Assembly: GCA_050249455.1 (NCBI GenBank)
Contig: JBFWQM010000002.1
Span: 8,888 to 72,887 of the forward strand
Source: Rhodospirillaceae bacterium
Lineage (GTDB): Bacteria > Pseudomonadota > Alphaproteobacteria > MPNO01 > VGEU01
DNA: 64,000 bases
Reading direction: 5' to 3'
Below the pieces are notes generated by a model, which was not told the DNA's origin, ran no database searches, and saw nothing but the letters and a program-made list of their open reading frames with translations. A program made the position numbers and the translations under genes. Positions within the stretch are counted from its first letter, which is position 1, and each line of letters opens with the position of its first letter. Shown piece by piece: positions 25,177 to 60,500 of this stretch.

Positions 25177-26685
25177 TCACGCGAACCCGGTGTCGCCCAT
25201 GAACCGCAGATATTCCGACTGCTGCGCCTTCATCTGGCGGATTTCCTCGGGCGTGAACCACTTGGTGAAGTCCATCTGCTGGACCGGGTAGACCGCGCGG
25301 GTGAAGTGCTCCTTGGCGGCGAGCGGGACGGTGGCGTCGATGCCGAGGCCGCCGTCGAACATCGAGACCTGCTCGGCGGCCGACATGCGCTCGGCCGGCA
25401 TGTAGGCGTGGCCCTTGCCGCCGGCGGCACCGGTGATGATGTCGGTGTGCGGGTTGACCCGGGTCGACATCGCCCACAGCACGTCCTCGGGCTGGTAGAT
25501 GTCGATGTCCTCGTCGACCACCACCACCATGCGCATGCCGCGCGCCAGGCCCATCACCGCGGCCAGCAGGTTGCGCTGCAGCCCCTCGTCGGAGCGGCGG
25601 CGCTTCTTCACCTGGATCACGATGCCGCCCCACATCATGAACGCGGTCGGCGCGGTGACGTCCAGCACGAAGCCGGGCGCGATGCGCTCGCACAGCTCGA
25701 AGTAGTTGGCCGCCGCGAACGGCACCCACTGCCAGATCGAGCCGAGATGCGGCACGAAGTAGATCGGCTTGTCCTTGCGATGGGTGATCGCCGTCACCTC
25801 GAACCGCCGCGCGCGGTAGGCGCGGCCCATGTAGCGCGCCCATTCCGGGTGGAACATCGCGGTGCCCTGCGATGCGGTGCGCTCCGCCTCCTCGGTCTCC
25901 CAGACCCGCTGGCTGGGCACGATGTAGCCCTCGATCACGTACTCGGCGTTGGCCACCGCATAGGCGTCCACCGTCTTCGCCTTGACGATCTCGATCGGCG
26001 CGCCGCCCATCCGCCCGGCGCAGCCGAGCTCGTCGTCCACCGTCGGGAAGATCGCGGCGTTGAGGAAGCCCATCCCCATCAGCTCGACCATCGGCGGCGG
26101 CGAGACGTTGACCGTGCACGGGATGCGCTGGTCGTAGTTGGCGTCGGCGATCTGGTCGCCGTGGCCGCCCGGCACCATGTTGATCGAGGCGTAGTCGTTG
26201 CCGCGGAAGCTCATGCGGTAGAACGACAGCTGGTTGCCGCCATTGGCCCACTTGCCGCTGATGCAGTGGACGCCGGAGCCGAAGAAGCGGCCGCCGTCGA
26301 GCGGGGTGTGCTGCACCATCGGCAGGACCGCGAAGGGGTTCACCTCCTCGCGCGGGATCACCACCTCCTGGCACGGCGCGTCCTTGACCTCGACCGGCGG
26401 CAGCGGGTTCTTGATGCCGTCCAGCACCTTGAACTTGGTGTCGCGCATGTGGTCGACGCCGAGCAGCTTGCACAGCCGCTCGCGCCGGCCCCACAGGCTC
26501 GCGATCAGCCGCGCGTTGGGATAGCCGGTGACGTTCTCCATCAGGAACGCGGGCCCGTCGTCGAAGGCCTTGTTGATGGCGGTCGCCTCCAGCACCGGGC
26601 TGACCGGGGCGGCGACCTTCTTCACGTCGGGCCCGAGCCAGTCGAGCGTGGTCCTGAGGCTCTTGAGCGCTTCCTCGCGGTTCAT
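25177..26685 (-). CDS. UbiD-family decarboxylase, paralogue 2 (divergent)
   Basis: Start at MNREEALK. UbiD-like blocks are AFLMENVTGYP, GGRFFGSGVHCI, NQLSFYRM and the GGIVIQVKKRR region. About 502 aa. Confidence 0.8.
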   Translation of the reverse strand: MNREEALKSLRTTLDWLGPDVKKVAAPVSPVLEATAINKAFDDGPAFLMENVTGYPNARLIASLWGRRERLCKLLGVDHMRDTKFKVLDGIKNPLPPVEVKDAPCQEVVIPREEVNPFAVLPMVQHTPLDGGRFFGSGVHCISGKWANGGNQLSFYRMSFRGNDYASINMVPGGHGDQIADANYDQRIPCTVNVSPPPMVELMGMGFLNAAIFPTVDDELGCAGRMGGAPIEIVKAKTVDAYAVANAEYVIEGYIVPSQRVWETEEAERTASQGTAMFHPEWARYMGRAYRARRFEVTAITHRKDKPIYFVPHLGSIWQWVPFAAANYFELCERIAPGFVLDVTAPTAFMMWGGIVIQVKKRRRSDEGLQRNLLAAVMGLARGMRMVVVVDEDIDIYQPEDVLWAMSTRVNPHTDIITGAAGGKGHAYMPAERMSAAEQVSMFDGGLGIDATVPLAAKEHFTRAVYPVQQMDFTKWFTPEEIRQMKAQQSEYLRFMGDTGFA

Positions 26686-46959: not shown

Positions 46960-47418
46960 TCAGCGCTGGGCCTCGACGTCGCGGGAGAGATTGTCGCGGA
47001 TCTTGCGCAGCGTCGAGCGCAAGCCCGACAGCTCGTCCGCGCCGATGTCGCCGCCCGCCACGGCGTTCACCTCGAGGTGGCAGTGGTGGACGGTCGCCAG
47101 CAGGCTGCGCGCCTCGTCAGTCAGGAAGACGTTGATCGTGCGGCGGTCGGCGGCATTGCGCACCCGCCGGATCATGCCGTCGCGCTCCAGCAGGCGCAGC
47201 GCCGCGACCGTACTGGGCTCGGTGGTGCCGACGCGGCGGCTGAGCTCGCGCTGGCTGACTCCTTCCTCCAGCGACAGCATGCGCAGCACGAACCACTGCC
47301 CCGGCGTCAGGCCGTAGGGGTGCAGCCGCGTGCGCAGGGCCTTGGTCATCAGGTTGTCGGTGTCGCGCACGATATAGCCTAACGATAATTCGGGGTCTTC
47401 GGACTCATGGACGTTCAT
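46960..47418 (-). CDS. MarR-family transcriptional regulator
   Basis: Start MNVHESED. Contains LTPGQWFVLRMLSLEEGVSQRELSRRVGTTEPSTVAALRLLERDGMIRR. ATGA overlap with the upstream UbiD gene. Confidence 0.85.
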   Translation of the reverse strand: MNVHESEDPELSLGYIVRDTDNLMTKALRTRLHPYGLTPGQWFVLRMLSLEEGVSQRELSRRVGTTEPSTVAALRLLERDGMIRRVRNAADRRTINVFLTDEARSLLATVHHCHLEVNAVAGGDIGADELSGLRSTLRKIRDNLSRDVEAQR

Positions 47419-48815
47419 GTCAAGAACTCGCTGATATCGATCTGGCCATGGTTGGTCGGCATCGCCTTGGCGAAGCGCGCCCGGTCGGGCGACGTGACCG
47501 GCGGCCGCGTCGCATCGATGATCCACTTGGTGCCGACGCGGTACATCGCGCTCATGCCGGGCACGATGTCGGAGATGTTGTCGAGCGACCAGATGCGGCT
47601 GTTCGGCAGCTTCACGATGTCGTCTTCGGCGTGCACCCGTGTGGTCAGCGACCAGAACACCTGGCGCAGGTCGGACGCGTCGATGTCGTCGTCCACCGCG
47701 ATGGCGAGCTTGGGATGCATGTAGGGGCTCGACAGCGCGGCGATCAGCGCGGTCTTGGCTTGGCCGGCCACGCGCGGGCGGATCTTCAGCACCACCGCCA
47801 TCAGCCCGGCGATGCCGAGGCAGCGCACGTCGAGCAGGTCGAGCCCGCCTTCGACGTTCTTCAGGTGGTCGGTGATCACCGTCTCGATGCAGGTCGCGGT
47901 GATCGACTGGGTGTCGGTCATCGGCGCGCCGCACTGCATGCCGTAGAAGATCGGGTCGCGCCGGTGGGTGATCGCCTTGACGACGAACACCTCGGTGGAG
48001 CCTTCCATCGCGTAGTTGCCGCTGGCCTCGCCGAACGGGCCCTCCGGCGTCATCTCCTCGGGCAGGATCTCGCCCTCGATCACCAGCTCGGCGTCGGCCG
48101 GCACCTCGATGTCGATGGTCTCGCACTTGACCATCCGGATCGGATCCTCCAGCAGGCCGCCGGCCACCTCCAGCTCGTCGAGCCCGTAGGACGAGGTGAA
48201 GCCGGCGGCGTAGTAGAGCGCCGGATGGGCGCCGACCACCACCGCCGCGGGCATCGGCTGCTTCTTCTTCTGATACATCTCGTAGATGCGCAGCGCGTGC
48301 CGCGGGCAGATCAGGAAGCCGGTGCGGTCCGGCCCCAGGATCTGCTGGCGGTGGATCGACATGTTGCGGATGCCGGTCTCCGGATCCTTGATGATGACCA
48401 TGCCGGCGGCGATGTAGGGGCCGGGGTCGGCCTGCGAGGTCCACATCGCCGGGAGCTTGGTGAGGTCGGCGTCCTTGCCGAGCTTGATGACCTCCTTGCA
48501 CGGCGCGGTCGCGCGCTCGACCATCGCCGGCTTGACCGGCTTCTTGATGCGCTCCACCAGCGTGGAGATCAGGCGGTCCGGCTCCACCCCCAGCGCGATC
48601 GACCACTTGGTGCGGTCGGCGATCGCCTGGTTGACGACCTGCCAGCCGGGGAAGCCCTTCAGGTTGGTGAACAGCGTGGACTTCGCGAGCCGGTCGTAGG
48701 CCTTCCAGCCGACCGCCGAGAGGTTCTCATGAGGGTCGACTTCCTTGGTGATCCGAAGCAGCTCTCCCTGCTGCTCCAGGTTCCGGACGTGGGCCCGTAG
48801 AGACTGGTCACGCAT
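47415..48815 (-). CDS. UbiD-family decarboxylase, paralogue 3
   Basis: Contains LRITKEVDPHENLSAV, GIRNMSIHR, EGPFGEASGNY and the IAVDDDID block. 466 aa. Confidence 0.85.
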   Translation of the reverse strand: MRDQSLRAHVRNLEQQGELLRITKEVDPHENLSAVGWKAYDRLAKSTLFTNLKGFPGWQVVNQAIADRTKWSIALGVEPDRLISTLVERIKKPVKPAMVERATAPCKEVIKLGKDADLTKLPAMWTSQADPGPYIAAGMVIIKDPETGIRNMSIHRQQILGPDRTGFLICPRHALRIYEMYQKKKQPMPAAVVVGAHPALYYAAGFTSSYGLDELEVAGGLLEDPIRMVKCETIDIEVPADAELVIEGEILPEEMTPEGPFGEASGNYAMEGSTEVFVVKAITHRRDPIFYGMQCGAPMTDTQSITATCIETVITDHLKNVEGGLDLLDVRCLGIAGLMAVVLKIRPRVAGQAKTALIAALSSPYMHPKLAIAVDDDIDASDLRQVFWSLTTRVHAEDDIVKLPNSRIWSLDNISDIVPGMSAMYRVGTKWIIDATRPPVTSPDRARFAKAMPTNHGQIDISEFLT

Positions 48816-48972: not shown

Positions 48973-50019
48973 ATGTCGATCCCCATCCTTCCCACTACCG
49001 TCGTCGGCAGCTACGTGCAGCCCGACTGGCTGGTCGACCGCGAAAAGCTGATCGGGCGGTCGCCGTCGCGGGTGCGCACCGAGGACATCTGGCGCATCCC
49101 GCCGCCGTGGCTGGAGGCGGCGCAGGACGACGCCACGCTGCTCGCCGTGCGCGACCTGGAGCGCGCGGGGATTGACGTGATCACCGACGGCGAGATCCGG
49201 CGCGAAAGCTATTCGAACCGGTTCGCGACCGCGCTGGGCGGCATCGACAACGCCAATCCGGCGGTGATCCCCGGCCGGTCGGGCCGGCCAAACCTGGTGC
49301 CGCGAATCACCGGCCCGATCCGCCGCACCGGCCCGGTCGAGGTGCGCGACGTGGCGTTCCTGCGCGCCGCGACCGACCGGGCGATCAAGATCACCATCCC
49401 CGGCCCGTTCACCATGCTGCAGCAGGCGGTCAACGAGCACTATCCGGACGAAGCGTCGGCGGCGATGGACTACGCCGCGGCGGTGAACGAGGAGGTCAAG
49501 GCGCTGTTCGCCGCCGGCGCCGACGTGGTGCAGATCGACGAACCCTACGTCCAGGCCAACCCGGACAAGGCGCGCGCCTACGCGGTGCCGGCGATCAACC
49601 GGGCGCTGGAAGGGACGAAGGGTCTCGGCGCCACCTGCGTCCACCTGTGCTTCGGCTACGCCTATGTCGTGTTCGGCAAGCCCGGCGGCTACTCGTTCCT
49701 GCCGGAGCTGGAGGCCTGCGCGGCCGACCAGGTCTCGATCGAGGCGGCGCAGCCGAAGCTCGACCTCGAGATCCTGAAGGCGCTGCCGTCGAAGACCATC
49801 GTGCTCGGCGTCATCGACAACGGCGACCCGGCGGTGGAGACCGCGGAGACGGTGGCGGGCCGCATTCGTGCCGCGCTGAAGGTGCTGCCGGCGGAACGGC
49901 TGGTGCTGGCGCCCGACTGCGGCATGAAGTACCTGCCGCGCGAGACCGCGTTCGGCAAGCTGAAGGCGATGGCGGACGGGGCGAGGATCGTGCGGCGCGA
50001 GATCGGGGCGGCCGGCTGA
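48973..50019 (+). CDS. cobalamin-independent methionine synthase (MetE C-terminal domain)-like Zn-dependent transferase, copy 1
   Basis: Start MSIPILPTTVVGSYVQP after GGAGA. Contains DGEIRRESY, VQIDEP, HLCFGY (HxC) and APDCGMKY, consistent with MetE-type Zn ligands. Confidence 0.8.
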   Translation: MSIPILPTTVVGSYVQPDWLVDREKLIGRSPSRVRTEDIWRIPPPWLEAAQDDATLLAVRDLERAGIDVITDGEIRRESYSNRFATALGGIDNANPAVIPGRSGRPNLVPRITGPIRRTGPVEVRDVAFLRAATDRAIKITIPGPFTMLQQAVNEHYPDEASAAMDYAAAVNEEVKALFAAGADVVQIDEPYVQANPDKARAYAVPAINRALEGTKGLGATCVHLCFGYAYVVFGKPGGYSFLPELEACAADQVSIEAAQPKLDLEILKALPSKTIVLGVIDNGDPAVETAETVAGRIRAALKVLPAERLVLAPDCGMKYLPRETAFGKLKAMADGARIVRREIGAAG

Positions 50020-50032
50020 GCCCGGCCGCCGG

Positions 50033-53000
50033 TCAGACGAACGTCGCGTCGATGGCGAGCACCTGGAGCTGCTGGATGTTCGCCAGCCCGCCGGTCCCCG
50101 CGCCGAAGCCGAGATAGGCGAACTCGGAGTTGCCGAGGTAGCTCGACATCATGTCGGTGGCGAGCGAGCCGCGCGACACGCCGTCGAAGGTGTAGCTCAG
50201 CACCTTCAGCGCCGAGTCCCAGTTGACGACGACCGTGTGCCACAGCCCGTCCTCGATGTTGGGCAGCGCGACCGGCGTGGTGCCCGTCAGGGCGTCGGGG
50301 TCGAGGAAGCCGGTGTGGTCCGCGGCGATGTCGGCGACGCCGATGGTGCGGTTGCCCGCCGGGCTGTTGTAGGTGTCGAACTCGATCGCGAGGCCGTTGC
50401 GGATGCCGGCGATTCCCAGGCCGCTGCCGGCGCCGCCGTTGACCGTCGCGCCGGCCGGATCGTTGTGGATCACGAAGGCCATGCCGTCGGCGGCCCAGTC
50501 GGCGTCGCCGAAGTTGAGCTTGAAGCTGGCGGAGAAGTCCTCGCGGACGTCGACCCGGGCGGAGGTCGTCACCCCGCCAGACTGGCCGGTCGTGGAAGTC
50601 AGGGTGTAGGTGTCCGTCGCCGCGTTGAACGTCGCGCTGCCGTGCGCGACCAGGGTGACGGCGGGCGGCGGCGTGACTGTGACGCTGACGGTGGCCGCGC
50701 GCTGCGCCGCGCCGTCGCTGATCGTGTAGCTGAAGCTGTCGGGACCGGAATAGCCGGCGGCCGGGGTGTAGACGATGAAGTCGTCGGCCGGGTTGGCGGC
50801 GGTGCCGTTGTTGTTGATCGTGGCGGTGCCGTGGCCCGGCGCGGTCACGCCGACGATCGTCAGCGGGTCGTTGTTCGGATCGCTGTCGTTGCCCAGCACG
50901 TTGACCGAGACCGGGGTGCCAGCGGCGGTCGTCGCGCTGTCATTGTTGGCCACCGGCGGGCTGTTGGGCGGCGGCACGGCATTGACGGTGACGTTCACCG
51001 CCCCAACCGTCGAGGCCTTGCCGTCGGAGATCGTGTAGCTGAAGCCGTCGGGGCCCGAGTAGCCGGCGGCCGGGGTGTAGACGATGAAGTCGTCAGCCGG
51101 GTTGGCGGCGGTGCCGTTGTTGTTGATCGCGGCGGTGCCGTGGCCCGGCGTGGTCACGCCGACGATGGTCAGCGGGTCGCCGTTCGCGTCGCTGTCGTTG
51201 GCCAGCACGTTGACCGAGACCGGCGTGCCGGCGACGGTGGCGGCGGTGTCGGTGTTCGCCACCGGCGGCGTATTGGGCGGCGGGGTGATCGTCACGCCGA
51301 CGTTGCCCACCGTCGTGGCGGTGCCGTCGGAGATCGTATAGGTGAAGCCGTCCGGTCCGGAATAGCCGGCCGCCGGCGTGTAGACGACGGTGTCGTCGGC
51401 CGGGTTGGCGGGCGTGCCGTTGTTGTTGATCGTCGCCGTGCCGTGCGCCGGCGCGGAGACCGCGACGATGGTGATCGGGTTGGCGTCGGCATCGCTGTCG
51501 TTGGCGAGCACGTTGACCGTGACCGGCGCGCCGGCGGCGGTCGTCGCGGAGTCGGCGTTGGCGACCGGCGGGGTATTGGGCGCCTGGCCCTGCACGGTCG
51601 CGCTGATGTTGTGGACGCGCAGCTTCTGCACGTTGTCGAGGCCGCCGGTACCGGCCCCGAAGCCGAGATAGGCGAACTCCGAATTGCCGAGGTACTGCGA
51701 CATCATGTCGGTGGCGAGCGAGCCCATCGACACGCCGTCGAAGGTGTAGCTGAGGACCTTGGTGGCGGCGTTCCAGTTGACCGAGACGGCGTGCCACAGG
51801 CCGTCCTCGATGTTCGCCAGCGCGACCGGGGTGGTGCCGGTCAGGCTGTCGGTGTCGAGGAAGCCGGTATGGTCGGCGGCGATGTCGGCGACCCCGATCG
51901 TGCGGTTGCCGGCCGGGCTGTTGTAGGTATCGAACTCGATCGCGAGTCCGTTGGCGAGGCCCGCGATGCCCAGGCCGCTGCCGCCGCCGCCCACGGCGTT
52001 CGCCCCCGCGGCGGCGTTGTGGATCACGAACGCCATTCCGTCGGCGGCCCAGTCGCGGTCGCCGAAGTTCAGGTCGAAGGCGAGGGAGAAGTTCTGCCGC
52101 ACGTCGACGCGCGCGGTGGTCATCACCGTGCCGGCCTGGCCGGTGCTCGACGTCAGGGTGTAGACGCCGGTGCCGCTGTCGAACGTCGTGCTGCCGTTTG
52201 CCTTGAGCGACAGCGTCGCGGGCGGCGGCGCGGTGACCGTCACGCCAACGCTGCCGACGGTCGAGGCCTTGCCGTCGGAGATGGTGTAGGTGAAGCCGTC
52301 CGGCCCGGAATAGCCGGCCGCCGGGGTGTAGACGATGGTGTCGTCGGCCGGGTTTGCGGGGGTGCCGTTGTTGTTGATGACGGCGGTGCCGTGCGCCGGG
52401 GCGGAGACCGCGATGATGGTGATCGGGTCGGCGTTGGCGTCGCTGTCGTTGGCGAGCACGCTCACCGTCACCGGCGTGCCGGCGGCGGTCGACGCGGTGT
52501 CGGGGTTGGCCACGGGCGGGGTGTTGGGCGGCGGCACCGCGTTCACGGTGACGCTGACCGATCCGACCGTCGAGGCCGTCCCGTCGGAGATCGTGTAGGT
52601 GAAGCTGTCGGGTCCGGCGTAGCCGGACGCCGGCGTGTAGACGATGAAGTCGTCGGCGCCGTTTGCGGGCGTGCCGTTGTCGTTGATGGTCGCCGTGCCG
52701 TGCGCGGGGTTCGCCACCGAGATGATGCTGAGCGGGTCGAGGTTCGGGTCGGAATCGTTGGCCAGGACGTTGATGCTGACCGGGGTGTTGGTCGCCGTGC
52801 TCGCGCTGTCGGCGATCGCGACCGGCGCGCCGTTGCCCGGCGTCTCGTTCTCGTAGGTGGCGGCGATGCTGGTCAGCTTCACCATCTGGAGATTGGCGAG
52901 CCCGCCGGTGCCGCCGCCGACGCCGAAATAGGCGAACGACGAGCCGCCCAGGAAGGTGGTGACCAGGTCGGTCGTCAGCGACCCCATCGACACGCCGTCG

Positions 53001-53500
53001 AGGGTGTAGGACAGCGTCTGCGCCGACGCGTCCCAGCTCACCACGACGGAGTGCCACTGGTTGTCCTCGAGGTTGGCCAGCGCGACCGGCGTGGTGCCGG
53101 TCTTGCTGTCGGTGTCGAAGAAGCCGGTATGGTCGGCCGCGATGTCGGCGACGCCGGAAACCCAGTCGATCGGCAGGTTGTTGTAGGTGTCGAACTCGAT
53201 GCCGATGCCGTTCTTGATCAGCATGGTGCCGAGGCCGCTGCCGTCGACGCCCACGACGTTGTAGCCCAGCGGGTCGTTGTGGACGACGAACGCGATGCCG
53301 TCGGCGCCGCTGTCGCTGGCGCCCAGGTAGGCGTCGAACGCGATGGTGAAGTCCTCCCGCACGTCGATGCGGTCGGTGGACGACACCATGCCGGCCTGGT
53401 GGCTTCCGGCGGCGGTGGTCAGCGTGTAGACGTCGTCGTCGGGGTTGTAGAACGCGTTGCCGCGCGCCACCAGGTCGAGCTCGTCGATGTCGGCGATCAG
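50033..53500 (-). repeat. intragenic repeats in the giant gene: ~309-bp Ig-like units (x3 at ~50665-51590, x2 at ~52225-52850) and ~640-bp lectin-like units (x3)
   Basis: Adjacent Ig-unit DNA copies (for example 50760-51065 versus 51070-51375) and lectin copies (50095-50500 versus 51655-52060) align at roughly 85-90% by eye. Confidence 0.75.
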
Positions 53501-55240
53501 CAGCCGCCCCACCTCGCCCGAGAACAGGTTGGCATAGTAGACATAGCCGTCCGGGCCCTGCGTGAAGTGGACCGGGCCATCATTGCTGGAATAGAGGAAG
53601 CGGACCTCGCGGCGGTCGTTGACGTCGATGACGTAGACTTCGCCGTCGACGATGTCGCTGAAGAAGTAGTCGTTGAGGAACTCGGCCGGATAGCGCGAGC
53701 CGGAATAGACCACGTCGCCGCCGACGATCGCCTGAACCTCGTAGCCCGGCGCGCCCTCGGAATGGTTGAAGGCGCGATAGGCCGGCGTGATATCGATCGA
53801 GCCGTTGGCGACCGCGGCATAGAACGCCGGCGCGGTGGAGAGGTTTTGGTAGCTCGGCGTCTTCTCCAGGACGCCGTTGTCGCCGCCTTCGTAGTACGGC
53901 CAGCCGAAGTTGGCGCCCGGCGGCCCGCTCTCGATCTCCTCCCAGGTGTTCCACCCGGTGTTGGTCATGTAGAGGCGGCCGTCGGAGTCGAACCCCATGG
54001 AATAGGAGTTGCGCAGGCCGAGCTGGTAGACCTTGGCGTGGTTCGACGACAGGTCGTCGCCGGGCTGGACGAACGGGTTGTCGGCGAGGCCGAGGCCGGT
54101 GATCGGATCGACGCGCAGGATCTTGCCCGACAGGCTGTCGATCTGCTGCACGCTGTGGCTACGCGGGTCGGCGGTGTTGTAGGAGGTCCCGTCGCCGACC
54201 GAGATGTACAGCATGCCGTCGGGGCCGAACGCGAGCGCGCCGCCGGCATGGCTGAGCGAATCGACCTTGATGTAGTTGTCGGTGTAGACGCCCGTCTGCG
54301 CGTTGTAGCCGGATTCCGCCTGGCTGATGTTGTCGGTGCTGTTGACGGTGCCGCCGCCGCTGATGTCGGAGAGCGAATCGCCGGCGCCGCCGACCAGGAT
54401 CGTCTTGCTGCCCGGCAGCGGCGTCGTGTAGCCGGTCGCCGGGTCGAGCGTCCAGCGCACCACCCAGGCGAAGCGGTTGCCGTCGCCGTCCGGGCCGGCG
54501 TTGCCCGTGCGCCCGGCGGTGTCCGGCGGGTCGACCACGTAAAAGGCGTAGAGGTAGGGGTTGTTCGCGAAGTCGGGGTGGAACGCGATGTCCATCAGGC
54601 CGCGGTCGGCCGCGTGGTTGACCTCCGCGCTCAGGTTCACGAAGTTCGGCAGATAGGTGCCCGTGTCGAGGTCGAAGACCCGCAGCACGCCGTCCTTCTG
54701 GGGAATGAAGACGATCGAGGGGTCGTGCGGCGAGAACTCCAGCCGCATGGGATTCTCGAGCCCGGTGATCAGCGTCTGCTGGGTGACGGCGTAGGGCGAG
54801 CTGAGCGGCGGCGCCGGCGGGTCGACCACCGGATTCTCGTCGTCCAGGATCGCCACGGTCGCCGTGCGCGGGAACAGCAGCGTCGATCCGCTGTCCACGC
54901 TGATGATCGAAAAGGCGATGGTCTCGGTGGGCTCCGACAGGCCGTCGTTGAGGATCTGCACCGGGACCAGGATGCGGTCCTGTCCGGCGGCCATCGTGAC
55001 GCTGCCGTTCCCGGCGACGAAATCCACGCCCTCGGTGGCGCTGTTTCCCGTCACGCCGTAGTTGACGACGGCGGAGCCGCTGAGATCCCCGGTGCGGACC
55101 ACCGGGACGTAGACGATGCCGTTGGCCTCGCCGACGCTGATCTCGCTTTCTTCCAGAAAGACTGTACCGGTCATGACCGGACCATGACCGGAACCGGCAC
55201 GTTCACGCATCACCCGTTCGGGTGATGCGGCAAAAAGCAA
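50033..55240 (-). CDS. giant multidomain surface or secreted protein: Calx-beta, PQQ-sugar-dehydrogenase-like propeller, three L-type-lectin-like domains interleaved with five Ig/cadherin-like domains
   Basis: Calx-beta-like block VVNYGVTGNSATEGVDFV...VQILNDGLSEPTE. Propeller blocks are DIAFHPDF, GDGT, ILRVDP, GLRNSYSMGFD and GANFGWPYYEG. ConA-like blocks (DGIAFVVHN...IEFDTYN...AADHTGF) occur three times. Units of about 103 aa (PPVAN.DSA.T..GTPV.VNVLANDSD...YTISDG) occur five times. No signal peptide. In-frame alternative starts lie at 55210 and 55174. Confidence 0.85.
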   Translation of the reverse strand: MLFAASPERVMRERAGSGHGPVMTGTVFLEESEISVGEANGIVYVPVVRTGDLSGSAVVNYGVTGNSATEGVDFVAGNGSVTMAAGQDRILVPVQILNDGLSEPTETIAFSIISVDSGSTLLFPRTATVAILDDENPVVDPPAPPLSSPYAVTQQTLITGLENPMRLEFSPHDPSIVFIPQKDGVLRVFDLDTGTYLPNFVNLSAEVNHAADRGLMDIAFHPDFANNPYLYAFYVVDPPDTAGRTGNAGPDGDGNRFAWVVRWTLDPATGYTTPLPGSKTILVGGAGDSLSDISGGGTVNSTDNISQAESGYNAQTGVYTDNYIKVDSLSHAGGALAFGPDGMLYISVGDGTSYNTADPRSHSVQQIDSLSGKILRVDPITGLGLADNPFVQPGDDLSSNHAKVYQLGLRNSYSMGFDSDGRLYMTNTGWNTWEEIESGPPGANFGWPYYEGGDNGVLEKTPSYQNLSTAPAFYAAVANGSIDITPAYRAFNHSEGAPGYEVQAIVGGDVVYSGSRYPAEFLNDYFFSDIVDGEVYVIDVNDRREVRFLYSSNDGPVHFTQGPDGYVYYANLFSGEVGRLLIADIDELDLVARGNAFYNPDDDVYTLTTAAGSHQAGMVSSTDRIDVREDFTIAFDAYLGASDSGADGIAFVVHNDPLGYNVVGVDGSGLGTMLIKNGIGIEFDTYNNLPIDWVSGVADIAADHTGFFDTDSKTGTTPVALANLEDNQWHSVVVSWDASAQTLSYTLDGVSMGSLTTDLVTTFLGGSSFAYFGVGGGTGGLANLQMVKLTSIAATYENETPGNGAPVAIADSASTATNTPVSINVLANDSDPNLDPLSIISVANPAHGTATINDNGTPANGADDFIVYTPASGYAGPDSFTYTISDGTASTVGSVSVTVNAVPPPNTPPVANPDTASTAAGTPVTVSVLANDSDANADPITIIAVSAPAHGTAVINNNGTPANPADDTIVYTPAAGYSGPDGFTYTISDGKASTVGSVGVTVTAPPPATLSLKANGSTTFDSGTGVYTLTSSTGQAGTVMTTARVDVRQNFSLAFDLNFGDRDWAADGMAFVIHNAAAGANAVGGGGSGLGIAGLANGLAIEFDTYNSPAGNRTIGVADIAADHTGFLDTDSLTGTTPVALANIEDGLWHAVSVNWNAATKVLSYTFDGVSMGSLATDMMSQYLGNSEFAYLGFGAGTGGLDNVQKLRVHNISATVQGQAPNTPPVANADSATTAAGAPVTVNVLANDSDADANPITIVAVSAPAHGTATINNNGTPANPADDTVVYTPAAGYSGPDGFTYTISDGTATTVGNVGVTITPPPNTPPVANTDTAATVAGTPVSVNVLANDSDANGDPLTIVGVTTPGHGTAAINNNGTAANPADDFIVYTPAAGYSGPDGFSYTISDGKASTVGAVNVTVNAVPPPNSPPVANNDSATTAAGTPVSVNVLGNDSDPNNDPLTIVGVTAPGHGTATINNNGTAANPADDFIVYTPAAGYSGPDSFSYTISDGAAQRAATVSVTVTPPPAVTLVAHGSATFNAATDTYTLTSTTGQSGGVTTSARVDVREDFSASFKLNFGDADWAADGMAFVIHNDPAGATVNGGAGSGLGIAGIRNGLAIEFDTYNSPAGNRTIGVADIAADHTGFLDPDALTGTTPVALPNIEDGLWHTVVVNWDSALKVLSYTFDGVSRGSLATDMMSSYLGNSEFAYLGFGAGTGGLANIQQLQVLAIDATFV

Positions 55241-55413: not shown

Positions 55414-56451
55414 ATGCCCGAACTTCTGCCCACCACCGTCGTCGGCAGCTACGTCCAGCCCGACTGGCTGGTCGACCGCGACAATCTGAAGGGCCGTCTG
55501 CCGCCGCGGGTGCGGGCGAAGGAGATGTGGCGCATCCCGGCGCCGTGGCTGGAGGAAGCGCAGGACGACGCGACCCTGCTCGCCATCCGCGACATGGAGC
55601 GGGCGGGGGTGGACATCATCTCCGACGGCGAGGTGCGGCGGGAGAGCTATTCCAACCACTTCGCCACCGCGCTGGACGGCATCGACATCGACCGGCCGGG
55701 CACCGCGATCGACCGCACCGGCCATGCCAACCCCGTGCCTCGCATCGCCGGGCCGATCCGCCGCACCCGCCCGGTGGAGCGGCGCGACGTCGAGTTCCTG
55801 CGCGCCAACACCGACCGGCGGATCAAGATCACCATCCCCGGCCCGTTCACCATGACCCAGCAGGCCCAGAACGACCACTACGCGGACGACGCCGCGGCAG
55901 CGATGGACTATGCGGCGGCGGTCAACGCCGAGATCAGGGACCTGTTCGCCGCCGGCGCCGACGTGGTGCAGCTCGACGAGCCCTACATGCAGGCGCGTCC
56001 GGACAAGGCCAAGACCTACGCCATCAAGGCGATCAACCGGGCGCTGGAGGGGGTCGGCGGCACCACCGCGGTGCACCTCTGCTTCGGCTACGCCCACATC
56101 GTCCACAACCGGCCGTCGACCGGCTACTCGTTCCTGCCTGAGCTGGAGGATTGCGCCGTCCAGCAGGTCTCGATCGAGGCGGCGCAGCCCGACCTCGACG
56201 TCGCGGTGCTGAAGTCGCTGCCGACCAAGACCGTCATCCTCGGCGTCATCAATAACGGCGACCCGGCGGTCGAGACGCCGGAGACGGTCGCCGCGCGCAT
56301 CCGCAAGGCGCTCAAGGCGGTGCCGGCGGAGCGCCTGGTGATCGCGCCGGACTGCGGCATGAAGTACCTGCCGCGGGCGACGGCGTTCGGCAAGCTCAGG
56401 GCGATGGTCGACGGCACCCGCATCGTGCGCCGCGAGCTCGGGGGCGGTTGA
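55414..56451 (+). CDS. MetE C-terminal-domain-like Zn-dependent transferase, copy 2
   Basis: Start MPELLPTTVVGSYVQP. It aligns with copy 1 along its whole length at roughly 70% identity by eye. HLCFGY and APDCGMKY are conserved. Confidence 0.8.
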   Translation: MPELLPTTVVGSYVQPDWLVDRDNLKGRLPPRVRAKEMWRIPAPWLEEAQDDATLLAIRDMERAGVDIISDGEVRRESYSNHFATALDGIDIDRPGTAIDRTGHANPVPRIAGPIRRTRPVERRDVEFLRANTDRRIKITIPGPFTMTQQAQNDHYADDAAAAMDYAAAVNAEIRDLFAAGADVVQLDEPYMQARPDKAKTYAIKAINRALEGVGGTTAVHLCFGYAHIVHNRPSTGYSFLPELEDCAVQQVSIEAAQPDLDVAVLKSLPTKTVILGVINNGDPAVETPETVAARIRKALKAVPAERLVIAPDCGMKYLPRATAFGKLRAMVDGTRIVRRELGGG

Positions 56452-56531
56452 GGCGGTGGATCGCCGGGCTTTTCGAGCGGCCCGGCGGTTGGATAAGATG
56501 ATGTCTCGCGAAACGACCGCGGAGCGAACGG

Positions 56532-56840
56532 ATGGACGAGAGGCGCTATCACGACATGGGCGGGCTGACGGCCGGTCCTGTGGAGGCATCGACGCATGAT
56601 GCCGAGCCGTGGCAGAAGCTGCTTACCGCCTCCCGCAACGCGCTGGGCGACCGCTACTGCCGGGTGGACGAACTGCGCCGGGCGATCGAGGACCTGCCGG
56701 CGGCGCAGTACGACCTGCCCTATTTCGAGAAGTGGGCCTGCGCGCTGGCGAACCTCTACGTCGAGAAGGGGCTGTTCACCCGCGAGGAGCTGACGGCGAA
56801 GATGGACGCGGTGCGGCGGCGGATGCGCGAGGCGGCATGA
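56532..56840 (+). CDS. nitrile hydratase-family beta subunit, N-terminal-half polypeptide
   Basis: Contains YHDMGG (compare the HDLGG start of NHase beta), EPWQ and DELRRAIEDLPAAQYDLPYFEKWACALANLYVEKGLFTREEL. 102 aa. ATGA overlap with the next ORF. Confidence 0.75.
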   Translation: MDERRYHDMGGLTAGPVEASTHDAEPWQKLLTASRNALGDRYCRVDELRRAIEDLPAAQYDLPYFEKWACALANLYVEKGLFTREELTAKMDAVRRRMREAA

Positions 56841-57121
56841 GCCTGAGATACGCCGTCGGCGACCGGGTCACCATCAAGCGGACGCACCCACCCGGCCACC
56901 GCCGCACGCCGTTCTACATCCGCGGCAAGACCGGCGTGATCGAGCGCTACGCCGGCGCCTTCCCCAACCCGGAGGAGCTGGCCTACGGATTCGACGGGCT
57001 GCCGGCGCGCCCGCTCTACCGGGTGCGCTTCAGACAGAAGGACATCTGGCCGAAATACGACGGGCCGGAACACGACACCCTCGACCTCGAGGTCTTCGAG
57101 CACTGGCTGGAGCCGGCGTGA
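56837..57121 (+). CDS. nitrile hydratase-family beta subunit, C-terminal-half (SH3-like) polypeptide
   Basis: Contains GDRVTIKRTHPPGHRRTPFYIRGKTGVIE...YRVRF...LDLEVFEHWLEP, which matches the C-terminal domain pattern of NHase beta. 94 aa. Confidence 0.75.
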   Translation: MSLRYAVGDRVTIKRTHPPGHRRTPFYIRGKTGVIERYAGAFPNPEELAYGFDGLPARPLYRVRFRQKDIWPKYDGPEHDTLDLEVFEHWLEPA

Positions 57122-57146
57122 CCGGCACGGCGCGAAGGAGCAGGCG

Positions 57147-57806
57147 ATGAGCGACGAACGCGACACCCACGGCCACGCGCACGGCCACGACCACCCGCAC
57201 GACCACAACCATCCGCACGAGGCGATCGAGGCCGACGAGTCGGCCAACGAGTTCGCGGTGATGGCCGAGGCGATGAAGGAGCTCCTGATCGAGCACGGCT
57301 ACATCACCGCCGACGACGTGCGCACCGCGCTGGAGTACATGGACAGCCGCGACCCCGCGATGGGCGCGCGGGTGGTCGCCAAGGCGTGGACCGACCCGAC
57401 CTTCAAGGCGCGGCTGATCGACGACGCGCCGTCGGCGTGCAAGGAGCTCGGCATCGACGTCAGCCCCGCGCACCTCGTGGTGGTGGAAAACACGCCGCAG
57501 ATCCACAACGTCATCGTCTGCACGCTGTGCTCGTGCTACCCGCGCACGCTGCTGGGCCTGCCGCCCGACTGGTACAAGTCGCGCGCCTACCGCTCGCGCG
57601 TGGTGATCGAGCCGCGCACGGTGCTGAAGGAGTTCGGCACCGAGCTGCCCGGCAACGTCACCGTGCGGGTGCACGATTCCAACGCCGACCTGCGCTACAT
57701 CGTGCTGCCGATGCAGCCCAAGGGCACCGAGGGCTGGAGCGAGGACAGGCTCGCCGCCCTGGTCAGCCGCGACGCCATGGTCGGCGTCACGCTGCCGCAC
57801 GCTTGA
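57147..57806 (+). CDS. nitrile hydratase-family alpha subunit (Co-type-like VCTLCSCYP centre) with a His-rich N-terminal extension
   Basis: Contains the metal-binding claw IVCTLCSCYPRTLLGLPPDWYKS. The N-terminus is MSDERDTHGHAHGHDHPHDHNHPHE. Confidence 0.85.
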   Translation: MSDERDTHGHAHGHDHPHDHNHPHEAIEADESANEFAVMAEAMKELLIEHGYITADDVRTALEYMDSRDPAMGARVVAKAWTDPTFKARLIDDAPSACKELGIDVSPAHLVVVENTPQIHNVIVCTLCSCYPRTLLGLPPDWYKSRAYRSRVVIEPRTVLKEFGTELPGNVTVRVHDSNADLRYIVLPMQPKGTEGWSEDRLAALVSRDAMVGVTLPHA

Positions 57807-57825: not shown

Positions 57826-58200
57826 ATGCCGCGCGCGCGCCTGCGCCATCTCGCCATCCTGACCGAGGACGTCGACAAGCTGGTGAAGTTCTACATGGAC
57901 TCCTTCGGCATGGAGATTGTGGACGGGGTCGGCACCGCCACCTACCTGACCGACGGCCACATCAACCTCGCGATCATCCCGATCGGGCCGGAGCGCGAGA
58001 TCGAGGGCGACCACCTGAGGGTCGGCATCAACCACTTCGGCTTCGAGGTGGAGAGCGTCGCGGAGGTGGCGCCGGTTGCGCTCGGCTCCGGCGCCTCCGA
58101 CCAGGTGCGCAAGCGCCCGCCCAACCGCGAGGCCGAGTATCGCGTCCACGACCCCGACGGCAACCCGATCGACCTGTCCCAGCACGGCTGGCCGCACTGA
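57826..58200 (+). CDS. VOC (glyoxalase-fold) family protein
   Basis: Contains LRHLAILTEDVDKLVKFYMDSFGM and INHFGFEVES. It resembles the VOC gene at 9458-9859. Confidence 0.75.
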   Translation: MPRARLRHLAILTEDVDKLVKFYMDSFGMEIVDGVGTATYLTDGHINLAIIPIGPEREIEGDHLRVGINHFGFEVESVAEVAPVALGSGASDQVRKRPPNREAEYRVHDPDGNPIDLSQHGWPH

Positions 58201-58228
58201 CCCGGCGCTGATGCATCGACGGTGCGAG

Positions 58229-58257
58229 GGGGCGGGCGACGAACCCGCCCCTTTTTT
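58229..58257 (+). terminator. rho-independent terminator after the NHase/VOC operon (between convergent genes)
   Basis: The stem GGGGCGGG-cgacgaa-CCCGCCCC is followed by TTTTTT. Confidence 0.75.
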
Positions 58258-58269
58258 ATTTCGGGCGGC

Positions 58270-59190
58270 CTATGTGGTCTGCGGCCGTGCGGGCGCGGGA
58301 CGGGCGGGCATCCAGGTGGCGAGCACGATGCCGCCGAGGATCAGCGCCGCCGCGGCGATGTGGAACCAGGCGAACGTCTCGCCCAGGAACAGTATCGCGA
58401 ACAGCGAGCCGAACACGGGGTAGAGGTTGCCGAGATAGCCGGCCGCCGCCGCGCCCGCCCGCAGGACGCCCAGGTTCCACAGGGTGAACCCGAACACGCT
58501 GGCGACGACGCCGACATAGGCGAGCAGCGCGATCGTCGTCGGGTTCAGCGGCATGGTGCCGACGGTGGCCATCTCCCACGCCAGCAGCGGCGCCAGCGCC
58601 ACGAGACCGACCACGAACATCACCACCTGGAAGCCCATCAGGTCCATGCCGGGCGGCATCTTGCGCAGCAGCAGGATGTGCCCCGCCCACATGACGATGG
58701 CGCCCATGATCCACACGTCGCCGACATTGAGCTGCAGCCGCAACAGCACGGACGGGTCGCCGCGCCCGACGATCAGCACCAGCCCGCCGAAGCACAGCAC
58801 GATGCCGGCGACCTGGCGCGGGGTGATCCGGCTGCGGAAGAACAGCCATGCGCCAGTCAGCACCATCGCCGGCAGCGCGCCCGCCATCAGCGACCCCTGC
58901 ACCGCCGTCGTCGTCTGCAGCCCGATGTAGTAGAACGTGTTGAAGCCGGCGATGGCGACCAGGCCGATCGCGACGCAGAACCGCCAGTGCCGGACGTAGA
59001 GCAGGCGGTCCCGGCGCAGGCCGCGCAGCGCGAACGGCAGCACCACCACCAGCGCAATGGTCCAGCGCGCGAAGTTCAGCGCGACCGGCGGGATGTCGAC
59101 CGACGACGCGGCTCGGCCGATCACCGCATTGCCGCCCCACAGGGCGACGGCGAGGATCGCGAAGACGTAACCCCAGGCGCTGCGGCTCAT
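58270..59190 (-). CDS. DMT-superfamily (EamA-like) transporter
   Basis: Start MSRSAWGYVFAILAVALWGGN. Ten hydrophobic helices. The upstream part of the 435-aa track ORF looks non-coding. Confidence 0.8.
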   Translation of the reverse strand: MSRSAWGYVFAILAVALWGGNAVIGRAASSVDIPPVALNFARWTIALVVVLPFALRGLRRDRLLYVRHWRFCVAIGLVAIAGFNTFYYIGLQTTTAVQGSLMAGALPAMVLTGAWLFFRSRITPRQVAGIVLCFGGLVLIVGRGDPSVLLRLQLNVGDVWIMGAIVMWAGHILLLRKMPPGMDLMGFQVVMFVVGLVALAPLLAWEMATVGTMPLNPTTIALLAYVGVVASVFGFTLWNLGVLRAGAAAAGYLGNLYPVFGSLFAILFLGETFAWFHIAAAALILGGIVLATWMPARPAPARPQTT

Positions 59191-59296
59191 GTGCCTGTCT
59201 AGCCCAGCCGCAGCGGCGGGTCCACCTTGGTCATGTTGTCGCAGCGACGCGGCCGCATGCGGCCGCGCGTCGTCGGCCGCCTTATCTTCGATTTCC

Positions 59297-60022
59297 ATGG
59301 ACGATGGGACCAGGACCTGGTCGGCCGCGTCTGAAACGGCCGAATGCGTGAGCGCCCCGCCGCGGCCGACCCGGCCGGTGGTGGTTTGGGACCTACCGAC
59401 GCGCGTCTTCCACTGGACCGTCGTCGGCGCCGTGCTGCTGGGCTGGCTGACCGCCGAAGCGCCCGGCATCTGGTTCGCGCTGCACAAGCTCGCCGGCTTC
59501 GTAATCCTGGTCGCGCTGCTGTTCCGCGTGGTGTGGGGCATCGGCGGCAGCCGCCATTCGCGCTTCAGCGACTTCATCTATTCGTGGCCCGCGGTGCGGG
59601 CGCAGGTTGCGGACGCCATCCGTCTCCGCGCGCGGCCGCACGTGGGGCACACGCCCGCCGGCGGCTGGATGATCGTCGCGCTGCTGCTGACATTGGCCAC
59701 GATCGCGATTTCCGGCCTGTTCGCCGCCGCGCGCGATGTCGCCGGCCCGCTGGCGGCCGTGCTGCCCGCGGCGCTGTCGCACCTCGCGAAGGAAGTGCAC
59801 GAGACCGCGTTCAACATCCTGCTGTTCCTTGTCGTCGTGCATGTCTGCGGCGTCGTCGCAGAAGCCGCGCTGACCGGCGCGCGGCTGGTGCGTGCGATGT
59901 GGACCGGCCGCAAGGACCTGACGCCCGAGCAGGCGGCGGGGGAAGGGCGCCTCGTCGCCGTACGTTGGGCGGTCGCCGCGGCGGTCGCGGCCGCGGTGCT
60001 CGTCCTCGGCGCGTTCGGCTGA
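59297..60022 (+). CDS. cytochrome b (b561 / Ni-Fe-hydrogenase b-type cytochrome-like) membrane protein
   Basis: Start MDDGTRTW. Four TM helices carry conserved His residues (VFHWT, LHKLAG, VHETAF, VVHVCG). Confidence 0.7.
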   Translation: MDDGTRTWSAASETAECVSAPPRPTRPVVVWDLPTRVFHWTVVGAVLLGWLTAEAPGIWFALHKLAGFVILVALLFRVVWGIGGSRHSRFSDFIYSWPAVRAQVADAIRLRARPHVGHTPAGGWMIVALLLTLATIAISGLFAAARDVAGPLAAVLPAALSHLAKEVHETAFNILLFLVVVHVCGVVAEAALTGARLVRAMWTGRKDLTPEQAAGEGRLVAVRWAVAAAVAAAVLVLGAFG

Positions 60023-60025
60023 CCG

Positions 60026-60400
60026 ATGGGCCGCTGGCTGATCTGGGCCGGCCTCAACGGCCTGATCGCTGTGGCGGCCGGCGCTTTCGCCGCGCATGCG
60101 CTGCAGGCGACGCTGGAGCCGAAGGCGCTCGGGTGGATCGAGACTGCCTCGCGCTACGAGCTTGCGCATGCGCTGGCGCTGCTTTGGGTCGCGGTCCTGG
60201 CGCGCGACGACGTCTCGCCGTGGATCGCCCGCGCCGGTTGGCTGTTCGCCGCCGGCACGGTGCTGTTCTGCGGCAGCCTCTACGCGCTCGCCTTCACCGG
60301 GATGCGTCCGTTCGCGTGGGTCACGCCGCTCGGCGGGCTTGCCTTCCTCGCCGGCTGGGCCGCGCTGATCGCGGCGGGGCTCGCCGCGAAGCGTCGCTAG
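60026..60400 (+). CDS. DUF423 (YgdD-like) small membrane protein
   Basis: 124 aa with four TM helices. Contains GAFAAHAL...ASRYELAHALAL. Confidence 0.75.
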   Translation: MGRWLIWAGLNGLIAVAAGAFAAHALQATLEPKALGWIETASRYELAHALALLWVAVLARDDVSPWIARAGWLFAAGTVLFCGSLYALAFTGMRPFAWVTPLGGLAFLAGWAALIAAGLAAKRR

Positions 60401-60500
60401 AGCTTTATCCGATCAGGTTTGATCGGATACCGCTCTCGGTTCTTCGTTGGTCGCATTCTCTGCGGCGAACCGGATTCCACTTCGCCGGATAATGCTCTAG
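60397..60500. repeat. 104-bp MITE-like element with 15-bp terminal inverted repeats
   Basis: The left TIR is CTAGAGCTTTATCCG. The right TIR is CGGATAATGCTCTAG, a 14/15 inverted match. The internal perfect hairpin is TATCCGATCA-ggtt-TGATCGGATA (60406-60429). Confidence 0.55.

Follow-up and report, generated by a model that had tools for sequence, protein, structure and literature searches.

A predicted three-polypeptide cobalt-type nitrile hydratase with a split beta subunit and a histidine-rich alpha tail, encoded with no activator gene nearby in a Rhodospirillaceae bacterium

Classical cobalt (Co)-type nitrile hydratases (NHases), such as those of P. thermophila, R. rhodochrous J1, and P. 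putida, combine an alpha subunit bearing a CSCYPW motif with a single beta subunit of ~220 to 230 aa, and an accessory gene lies beside the structural genes. In a three-subunit class, the two halves of beta are separate polypeptides. The architecture of this class and its independence of an activator are already established from ToyJKL, the toyocamycin NHase of Streptomyces rimosus, from AnhD/AnhE/AnhA of S. canus CGMCC 13662 (PMC7329996), and from the enzyme of Microvirga flocculans (PMC11573777). Thiocyanate hydrolase (SCNase; ScnB/ScnA/ScnC of Thiobacillus thioparus, PDB 2DD4) has a comparable layout. Here, we analyze a 64-kb stretch of a Rhodospirillaceae bacterium genome (contig JBFWQM010000002.1; the whole stretch is referred to as the window) that carries three adjoining genes of this type, which we call betaN, betaC, and alpha. 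We conclude, with a probability of about 0.75 and on sequence grounds, that the locus encodes a three-polypeptide Co-type NHase of the activator-less class and that the His-rich tail of its alpha subunit is not what makes it activator-less. SCNase and ToyJKL, which the original prediction made from this DNA had named as precedents for a split beta subunit, are the correct ones.

All three genes match NHase family profiles, in agreement with the earlier proposal of a three-polypeptide enzyme of this family. The first, betaN (56532..56840, + strand; 102 aa, 11.8 kDa), is the N-terminal half of NHase beta as a polypeptide of its own; it matches PF21006 (NHase_beta_N; E value of 3e-14, profile positions 3 to 101 of 115) and positions 3 to 99 of TIGR03888. 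The second, betaC (56837..57121, + strand; 94 aa, 11.0 kDa), is the C-terminal, SH3-like half, also encoded separately, and matches PF02211 (NHase_beta_C; E value of 2e-22) and TIGR03888 positions 137 to 226. Compared with a classical beta subunit, the two together lack only the linker of ~40 residues, and the presence of the beta halves as two separate open reading frames (ORFs) adjoining alpha is the defining arrangement of the three-subunit class. A Shine-Dalgarno-like GGAG lies 7 nt 5' of the betaN ATG and a similar GAGG motif precedes betaC, the start codon of which is backed by two homologues (Plankt_bC and Strep_bC). The betaC ATG and the betaN TGA overlap as ATGA, suggesting translational coupling; with the profile matches, this bears out the earlier description of two coupled small ORFs as the beta halves. 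Aligned to full-length beta subunits and to PDB chains 4fm4_B and 3qxe_B, betaN keeps Arg49, the counterpart of the conserved FRH-motif Arg through which beta hydrogen-bonds the oxidized Cys ligands, as well as Tyr64 and Trp68 of the PYYxHW motif. In alignments to 4zgd_B, 3qyg_B, and reference proteins, betaC carries a GH21-R-R23 motif, Tyr27, and Arg29, and its His21 and Arg23 align with the GHTR motif of full-length beta subunits. The conserved pair of beta Arg residues and the Tyr that contact the oxidized cysteines are thus represented by betaN Arg49, betaC Arg23, and betaN Tyr64.

The third gene, alpha (57147..57806, + strand; 219 aa, 24.3 kDa), is preceded by a strong ribosome-binding site (RBS), AAGGAG, and encodes a Co-type subunit. 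It covers the whole PF02979 (NHase_alpha) profile (E value of 2e-81) and scores 260.1 bits against the NHase alpha model TIGR01323, the cutoff of which is 249.85. The metal claw (57519..57545, + strand) was read directly as C125-T-L-C128-S129-C130, followed by Y-P-R133; the VCTLCSCYP string reported in the original prediction occupies residues 124 to 132. The C-T-L-C-S-C sequence contains the Thr that marks the Co type (Ser marks the Fe type). The protein is ~50% identical to solved Co-type NHase alpha subunits, including that of P. thermophila. An AlphaFold2 (AF2) model, with a mean predicted local distance difference test (pLDDT) score of 83, has template modeling (TM) scores of ~0.75 to 0.79 to 1IRE, 3VYH, and 2DD4 and superposes on P. 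thermophila NHase alpha and on SCNase gamma. An identical alpha protein is on record in a metagenome-assembled genome (MAG) labelled Rhodospirillales bacterium (GCA_050187845.1). As a side observation, the C-terminal helix of betaN (KGLFTREELTAKMD) weakly resembles the first helices of alpha (HGYITADDVRTALE) in reciprocal hidden Markov model (HMM) comparisons (56502-56837 and 56940-57803), with E values of 0.0012 for the betaN HMM against alpha and 0.0039 for the alpha HMM against betaN.

The arrangement is common. We scanned one genome per GTDB species for relatives, which gave 281, and kept the best 80 loci; the 120 closest alpha proteins are the best hits in a collection of 5.8 billion proteins. 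All 80 loci are from MAGs, mainly of Alphaproteobacteria and Burkholderiales from ocean, lake, and soil, and their alpha proteins are 53 to 71% identical to that of the window. Separate betaN and betaC ORFs in the order betaN-betaC-alpha occur in every related locus that could be resolved (~70 of ~70), and CTLCSCYPR occurs in 120 of the 120 closest alpha homologues. The rarity that the original prediction implied is not borne out, given this conservation of the split, the occurrence of both claw and tail in all 120 homologues, and the existence of characterized precedents.

The source of the window is itself a MAG, and one might suspect that beta only looks split, through a frameshift or pseudogene artifact of assembly in a nonfunctional locus. 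We regard this as extremely improbable, because the split is kept in all of the ~70 independent resolvable loci, often with the same ATGA-type junction. Moreover, both halves are preceded by an RBS of their own, the linker is missing as a whole and not broken up, and all catalytic residues are intact. Natural fusions found among representatives at 50% identity (betaN-alpha, betaC-alpha, and betaN-betaC-alpha) indicate, by Rosetta-stone reasoning, that the three polypeptides act together.

Five plasmid-borne loci from cultured organisms extend the comparison. Those of Streptomyces sp. NBC_01176 and Planktothrix agardhii have the order betaN-betaC-alpha. In those of Burkholderia PAMC 26561, Rhizobium ruizarguesonis, and Microvirga terrae, the order is permuted to betaC-alpha-betaN, and HoxN or CbtAB cobalt transporter genes lie beside them. 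All five have CSCYPR and a His-containing N-terminal tail, and none has an accessory gene. The small genes of the permuted loci (L082 3481-4937 in Burkholderia, L083 3609-4935 in Rhizobium, and L090 2584-3935 in Microvirga) are both called "SH3-like domain-containing protein" by PGAP; the downstream one in L082 scores as betaN. In a neighbor-joining (NJ) tree of 126 alpha cores, built without bootstrap and with homologues of like architecture in place of the ToyJ, AnhA, and M. flocculans sequences, the window protein falls in a 12-member clade, all YPR or YPK, with the Streptomyces, Planktothrix, and Microvirga three-subunit types. A protein of Azospirillum annotated as SCNase joins next, and the classical CSCYPW alpha of Rhodococcus joins only at the root.

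Among the described enzymes, AnhD/AnhE/AnhA of S. canus shares with the window the order betaN-betaC-alpha, separate beta halves, the Co type, and the lack of an activator gene (PMC7329996). S. canus belongs to another phylum, and the comparison is one of layout, made through a Streptomyces plasmid homologue with the AnhDEA layout (L084) rather than through the AnhA sequence. L084 has CSCYPR, a His-containing N-terminal tail, and ~57% alpha identity, and it falls in the same NJ clade. The Streptomyces locus differs in having aquaporin and HoxN Co-transporter genes, both of which are missing from the window, whereas the window tail, (HX)9, is longer and more regular than that of Streptomyces. 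The likeness to ToyJKL is one of description, not of sequence: the toyocamycin enzyme is an (alpha beta gamma)2 hexamer with subunits of 21.2, 10, and 11.4 kDa (PMC8574189), compared with 24.3, 11.0, and 11.8 kDa for the three proteins of the window. However, ToyJKL belongs to a nucleoside-antibiotic biosynthetic cluster and has a defined substrate, and the window has no such context. The M. flocculans NHase is, like the window enzyme, alphaproteobacterial and split in beta; it is plasmid-borne, reported to be activator-free, and described as having a beta-alpha-beta order (PMC11573777). It is also reported to be Co-type, as are all of the acetamiprid- and flonicamid-degrading NHases reviewed in the same source (PMC11573777). 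The Microvirga type differs from the window in its permuted order, betaC-alpha-betaN, in its adjoining HoxN cobalt transporter gene, and in an alpha that is ~57% identical; the M. terrae homologue (L090) carries CSCYPR along with an N-terminal tail rich in His.

Compared with classical Co-NHases, the window shares the alpha fold, the CTLCSC claw, and the beta Arg and Tyr residues but has CSCYPR. In the Rhodococcus cluster, alpha has CSCYPW and no tail, beta is a single protein of 235 aa, and an accessory protein is annotated. The Aminobacter cluster agrees with it in CSCYPW, in the lack of a tail, and in having an accessory protein, yet its beta is annotated as two ORFs. The fused NHases of the Monosiga brevicollis type resemble the window in having a His-rich stretch directly N-terminal to the alpha domain (PMC3323583), but they are eukaryotic, encoded with introns, and made as a single polypeptide with an intact beta, whereas the window has three ORFs. 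Fusions of betaN to alpha through an HD-rich linker (LPHDHDHDGKPIQEDEAGEG) occur in bacteria, in two Rhodospirillaceae MAGs (L047 591-1547 and L049 7671-8630; 318 to 319 aa); no betaC was detected near either of them. These fusions bridge the split and fused layouts, and they look like an intermediate between the split bacterial and the eukaryotic beta-His-alpha arrangements. The Monosiga NHase is reportedly of the Co type and is said to be expressed in active form without an activator.

SCNase, which has its own activator, P15K, is a further relative to be weighed. Its genes follow the same three-subunit order (N-half, C-half, alpha-like), and it likewise has a Co(III) claw, an HD-repeat N terminus on the alpha-like subunit, and an Arg following CSCYP. 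Alpha Arg133 corresponds in position to gammaArg136 of SCNase and to alphaTrp116 of P. thermophila, a site that has been studied as a switch between NHase and SCNase (PDB 3VYG, SCNase R136W; 3VYH, alphaW116R), and the window alpha scores 231.2 bits against the SCNase gamma model TIGR03887. Nevertheless, we consider it very unlikely that the window encodes a thiocyanate hydrolase-like enzyme, or an enzyme for another small anion, in place of an NHase. The TIGR03887 score is below the cutoff of 291.45, while the NHase alpha model passes its own. Both small ORFs match NHase beta chains better than they match 2dd4_B and 2dd4_A, and at 102 and 94 aa, they lack the long N-terminal extensions of the SCNase small subunits (beta, 157 aa; alpha, 126 aa). 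The Arg after CSCYP and the HD-rich N terminus are both present but not diagnostic of SCNase, because they are common to the three-subunit homologues of Streptomyces and Microvirga, and the enzymes of like layout that have been characterized in those genera hydrate organic nitriles (PMC7329996, PMC11573777). Among the Pfam calls for positions 28.7 to 64 kb of the window, there are no sulfur-oxidation or COS-related genes.

The claim that no activator gene lies nearby, made in the original prediction, withstood profile, accessory-protein, and P-loop searches of the 64-kb window, as expected for a member of the three-subunit class. Family HMMs for betaN, betaC, and alpha, built from the 80 loci and run against the six-frame translation, found only the three ORFs. 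The classical accessory proteins of Rhodococcus and Aminobacter matched only ORF1 (betaN) in the six-frame window, weakly (E value of 0.0035), and across the 80 related loci their sole match was on a betaN gene. The window contains no CobW/COG0523-type P-loop and no NiCoT/HoxN or CbtA/B cobalt transporter (1 of the 80 related loci is positive for such a transporter), and there are no accessory or CobW Pfam domains on the genes called between 28.7 and 64 kb. A few CxCC strings in the window were rejected as candidates; they lie on frame pieces that lack a CobW-type P-loop and look like off-frame translations of high-GC DNA.

Described members of the class show how maturation could proceed without an activator. 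As Nelp 2014 is cited in PMC7329996, the ToyJ alpha subunit alone builds its active site. The S. canus NHase matures activator-free, with AnhD (betaN) proposed as the chaperone for both metal and subunit swapping (PMC7329996), and the three-subunit NHase of M. flocculans is reported without an activator (PMC11573777). The published routes to activator independence in this class run through alpha or betaN and do not involve a tail.

It is nonetheless conceivable that an accessory protein is needed and is encoded elsewhere in the genome, either as a P14K/NhlE-type protein or as an extra betaN paralogue. The betaN genes of the relatives speak for this idea, and the search covered 64 kb of the genome. 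In the closest syntenic relative, L002, the order is MetE-like, betaN', betaN, betaC, and alpha, and many relatives have 2 to 4 betaN domains; four such domains, including a fused pair, are found in a group that includes L005, L010, L012, L015, L019, L020, and L022. However, in ~55 of the 80 related loci there is only one betaN, and no accessory gene lies within +/-8 kb; characterized members of the class work activator-free (PMC7329996, PMC11573777); and the extra betaN copies, when tested as disguised activators, fit the N-terminal half of the NHase beta model and not the accessory model TIGR03889. We therefore judge an accessory protein in trans to be unlikely. In all of the extra copies, the RR and YF motifs are retained, and these proteins might serve as alternative versions of the beta module or as chaperones built into the locus.

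The betaN arrays, which lie upstream of betaC-alpha, are variable in their own right. Two copies occur in L002 (1571-2395) and in L003, L007, L008, L013, L017, and L021, and tandem arrays of 2 to 4 occur in L005 (6343-7600) and in L004, L010, L012, L015, L018 to L020, L022, and L025. An array protein of ~206 aa consists of two betaN domains, the first of which lacks the HDxGG start.

The tail is the most conspicuous feature of the alpha protein. Residues 8 to 25 (HGHAHGHDHPHDHNHPHE) contain 9 His in 18 positions in strict alternation, exactly the count given in the original prediction. The (His-X)9 tail (57168..57218, + strand; residues 8 to 24, HGHAHGHDHPHDHNHPH) is predicted to be disordered, with pLDDT below 50 over residues 1 to 23 of the AF2 model, and it may bind metal. 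Tails of ~36 aa with 6 to 14 His are present in 120 of the 120 closest alpha homologues, and the stretch from H12 to H22 is nearly invariant (alignment A1). The N terminus of SCNase gamma is DHDHDHDHDHDHK, and in an alignment with 2dd4_C, its DHDHDH... stretch pairs with the window tail; SHTHDHHHD is found in the alpha of the P. putida Co-NHase; and long HD tails also occur on classical CSCYPW alpha proteins among the family representatives. Eukaryotic fused NHases have a His-rich stretch between beta and alpha (PMC3323583), and a tail of this kind thus comes right before the alpha core whether the layout is split, fused, or eukaryote-type. Judged from these comparisons, a His/Asp-rich stretch ahead of the alpha domain is a family-wide trait.

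The original prediction went further and took the tail as a stand-in for the missing activator, that is, as a built-in metallochaperone that hands Co2+ to the claw. The conservation of its composition, its predicted flexibility, and its position directly ahead of the alpha core in all three architectures (PMC3323583) speak for such a role, as does the lack of a Co transporter or accessory gene nearby. In addition, the accessory protein of Aminobacter has an HD-rich C terminus (HERDHDDHDDHGHQH), which ties such tails to NHase maturation. This claim did not hold up well, however, and we find it doubtful, although somewhat less so than the need for a protein in trans. Cobalt incorporation into the P. 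putida NHase requires P14K (PMC4709657) even though its alpha has a similar tail, and so a tail alone does not confer activator independence. Similar tails are also found on SCNase gamma and classical CSCYPW alpha proteins, and in published work on activator-less three-subunit enzymes, the chaperone is alpha itself or betaN (PMC7329996). The tail may plausibly take part in metal handling, but as an auxiliary at most, and it is probably an aid to metal capture, not a replacement for an activator. In the Monosiga enzyme, removal of the His17 stretch reportedly did not prevent metallation, and by precedent we expect the effect of the tail to be modest. The Aminobacter accessory protein with the His/Asp-rich end (HERDHDDHDDHGHQHVAH) is that of Aminobacter sp. 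MSH1 (L089 4264-4641).

If the locus is an activator-less Co-type NHase, as we favor, alpha would bind a noncorrin Co(III) via Cys125, Cys128, Ser129, and Cys130. The Arg pair (betaN Arg49 and betaC Arg23) and betaN Tyr64 would hold and activate the oxidized Cys ligands, and betaN and betaC together would take the place of the usual beta subunit of ~220 aa. The toyocamycin NHase suggests, by analogy, an (alpha·betaN·betaC)2 heterohexamer of ~94 kDa as the most likely complex, which would hydrate an organic nitrile to the amide. Maturation most likely proceeds without a dedicated accessory protein by one of two routes. Alpha may take up Co and oxidize its own cysteines, as ToyJ does, or a betaN2·alpha intermediate may form and then swap its alpha, as proposed for AnhD of S. 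canus. The disordered (HX)9 tail would plausibly raise the local concentration of Co2+.

Several points weigh against this interpretation. The SCNase-like pocket residue Arg133 means that an organic nitrile is not certain as the substrate, and no more than 5 of the 80 related loci have an amidase gene close by, which gives little indication of the physiological pathway. The nearest cultured homologues reach only ~57% alpha identity or less. Extra betaN paralogues (1 to 3) are present in several of the closest relatives and missing from the window, which has one betaN; if they serve as chaperones in this clade, the window enzyme may need something that is missing here, and the span of the genome that was examined is 64 kb only. 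Finally, the terminator and operon calls, to which we return below, come from consensus scans alone.

The very large clade in which the window falls comes from uncultured Proteobacteria and has no characterized member; its loci combine CTLCSCYPR, an (HX)n tail, and a split beta, lack an accessory gene, and rarely have an amidase gene close by. We view the locus as a typical representative of an understudied majority class and not as a singular oddity. Reviews still call three-subunit NHases "unusual," but the comparative data show the opposite: the split beta is the default across marine, freshwater, and soil Alpha- and Betaproteobacteria, Cyanobacteria, and Actinomycetota. Activator-independent Co-NHases are attractive as biocatalysts because they can be expressed from fewer genes. 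A speculative and rather improbable idea is that, in this clade, the tail and betaN deliver cobalt in cis to an enzyme with a nonclassical substrate. If this were true, Arg133 and the thiol-alkyltransferase (MetE-like) gene upstream could hint at a small anionic or sulfur-bearing nitrile, and the arrays of 2 to 4 betaN domains in sister loci would be interchangeable modules for specificity or chaperoning.

The genes that flank the three structural genes were given correctly in the original prediction, with a MetE-like gene upstream and a VOC gene downstream, both on the same strand. The MetE-like Zn-type alkyltransferase gene, of the cobalamin-independent methionine synthase catalytic-domain family (55414..56451, + strand; PF01717, Meth_synt_2, E value of 1.5e-37) lies 80 bp upstream of the NHase genes. 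Its HLC and DCG Zn-ligand motifs were read directly, and the protein scores below the cutoffs of all NCBIfam methionine synthase models. In 5 of 81 loci (L001, L002, L005, L011, and L015), all in the nearer subclade, a co-directional MetE-like gene directly precedes the NHase genes. The VOC/glyoxalase-fold gene (57826..58200, + strand; 124 aa, PF00903, E value of 6.5e-12) begins 19 bp downstream of alpha; a VOC gene in this position occurs in none of the 80 related loci and is found in this genome only. A terminator-like GC-rich hairpin (58226..58254, + strand) with an 11-bp stem and a T run lies between the VOC gene and a convergent EamA transporter gene, and the consensus scan for terminators found 2 sites versus 1.2 expected. 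The operon probably consists of the MetE-like gene, betaN, betaC, alpha, and, last, the VOC gene, and the hairpin at 58226 probably marks its end. EamA is downstream in 17 related loci, and UbiD is nearby in 9; conservation of the neighborhood is a weak clue to the substrate.

A scan for sigma-70 promoters found none in the window, a result that is uninformative at this GC content, and no riboswitches or other RNAs were found at the Rfam gathering threshold or at an E value of <=1. The GC content is uniform at ~0.69, with no compositional signal of horizontal transfer. Farther upstream, a second MetE-like paralogue (48973-50019, + strand) is 73% identical to the copy at 55414-56451 (+ strand). 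Between the two lies a giant gene (50033-55240, - strand; ~1713 to 1735 aa) with Calx-beta, GSDH, L-type lectin, and cadherin-like repeats, which may have been inserted between the duplicated MetE-like genes. A UbiD-family decarboxylase gene (47415-48815, - strand), with a MarR regulator gene as its upstream neighbor on the same strand, is ~8 kb from the NHase genes. The public contig JBFWXC010000004.1, which has identical genes, begins at window position 25301, and the first 25 kb of the window accordingly derive from a different contig or assembly; one ORF in that part has no recorded match. Downstream of the hairpin, positions 58256-64000 of the window are syntenic with L002 3365-10066: both have EamA, DmsC-like, 4Fe-4S, and molybdopterin oxidoreductase subunit genes and an MBL-fold hydrolase gene, and the window has two additional genes, Ni_hydr_CYTB and DUF423, between EamA and DmsC.

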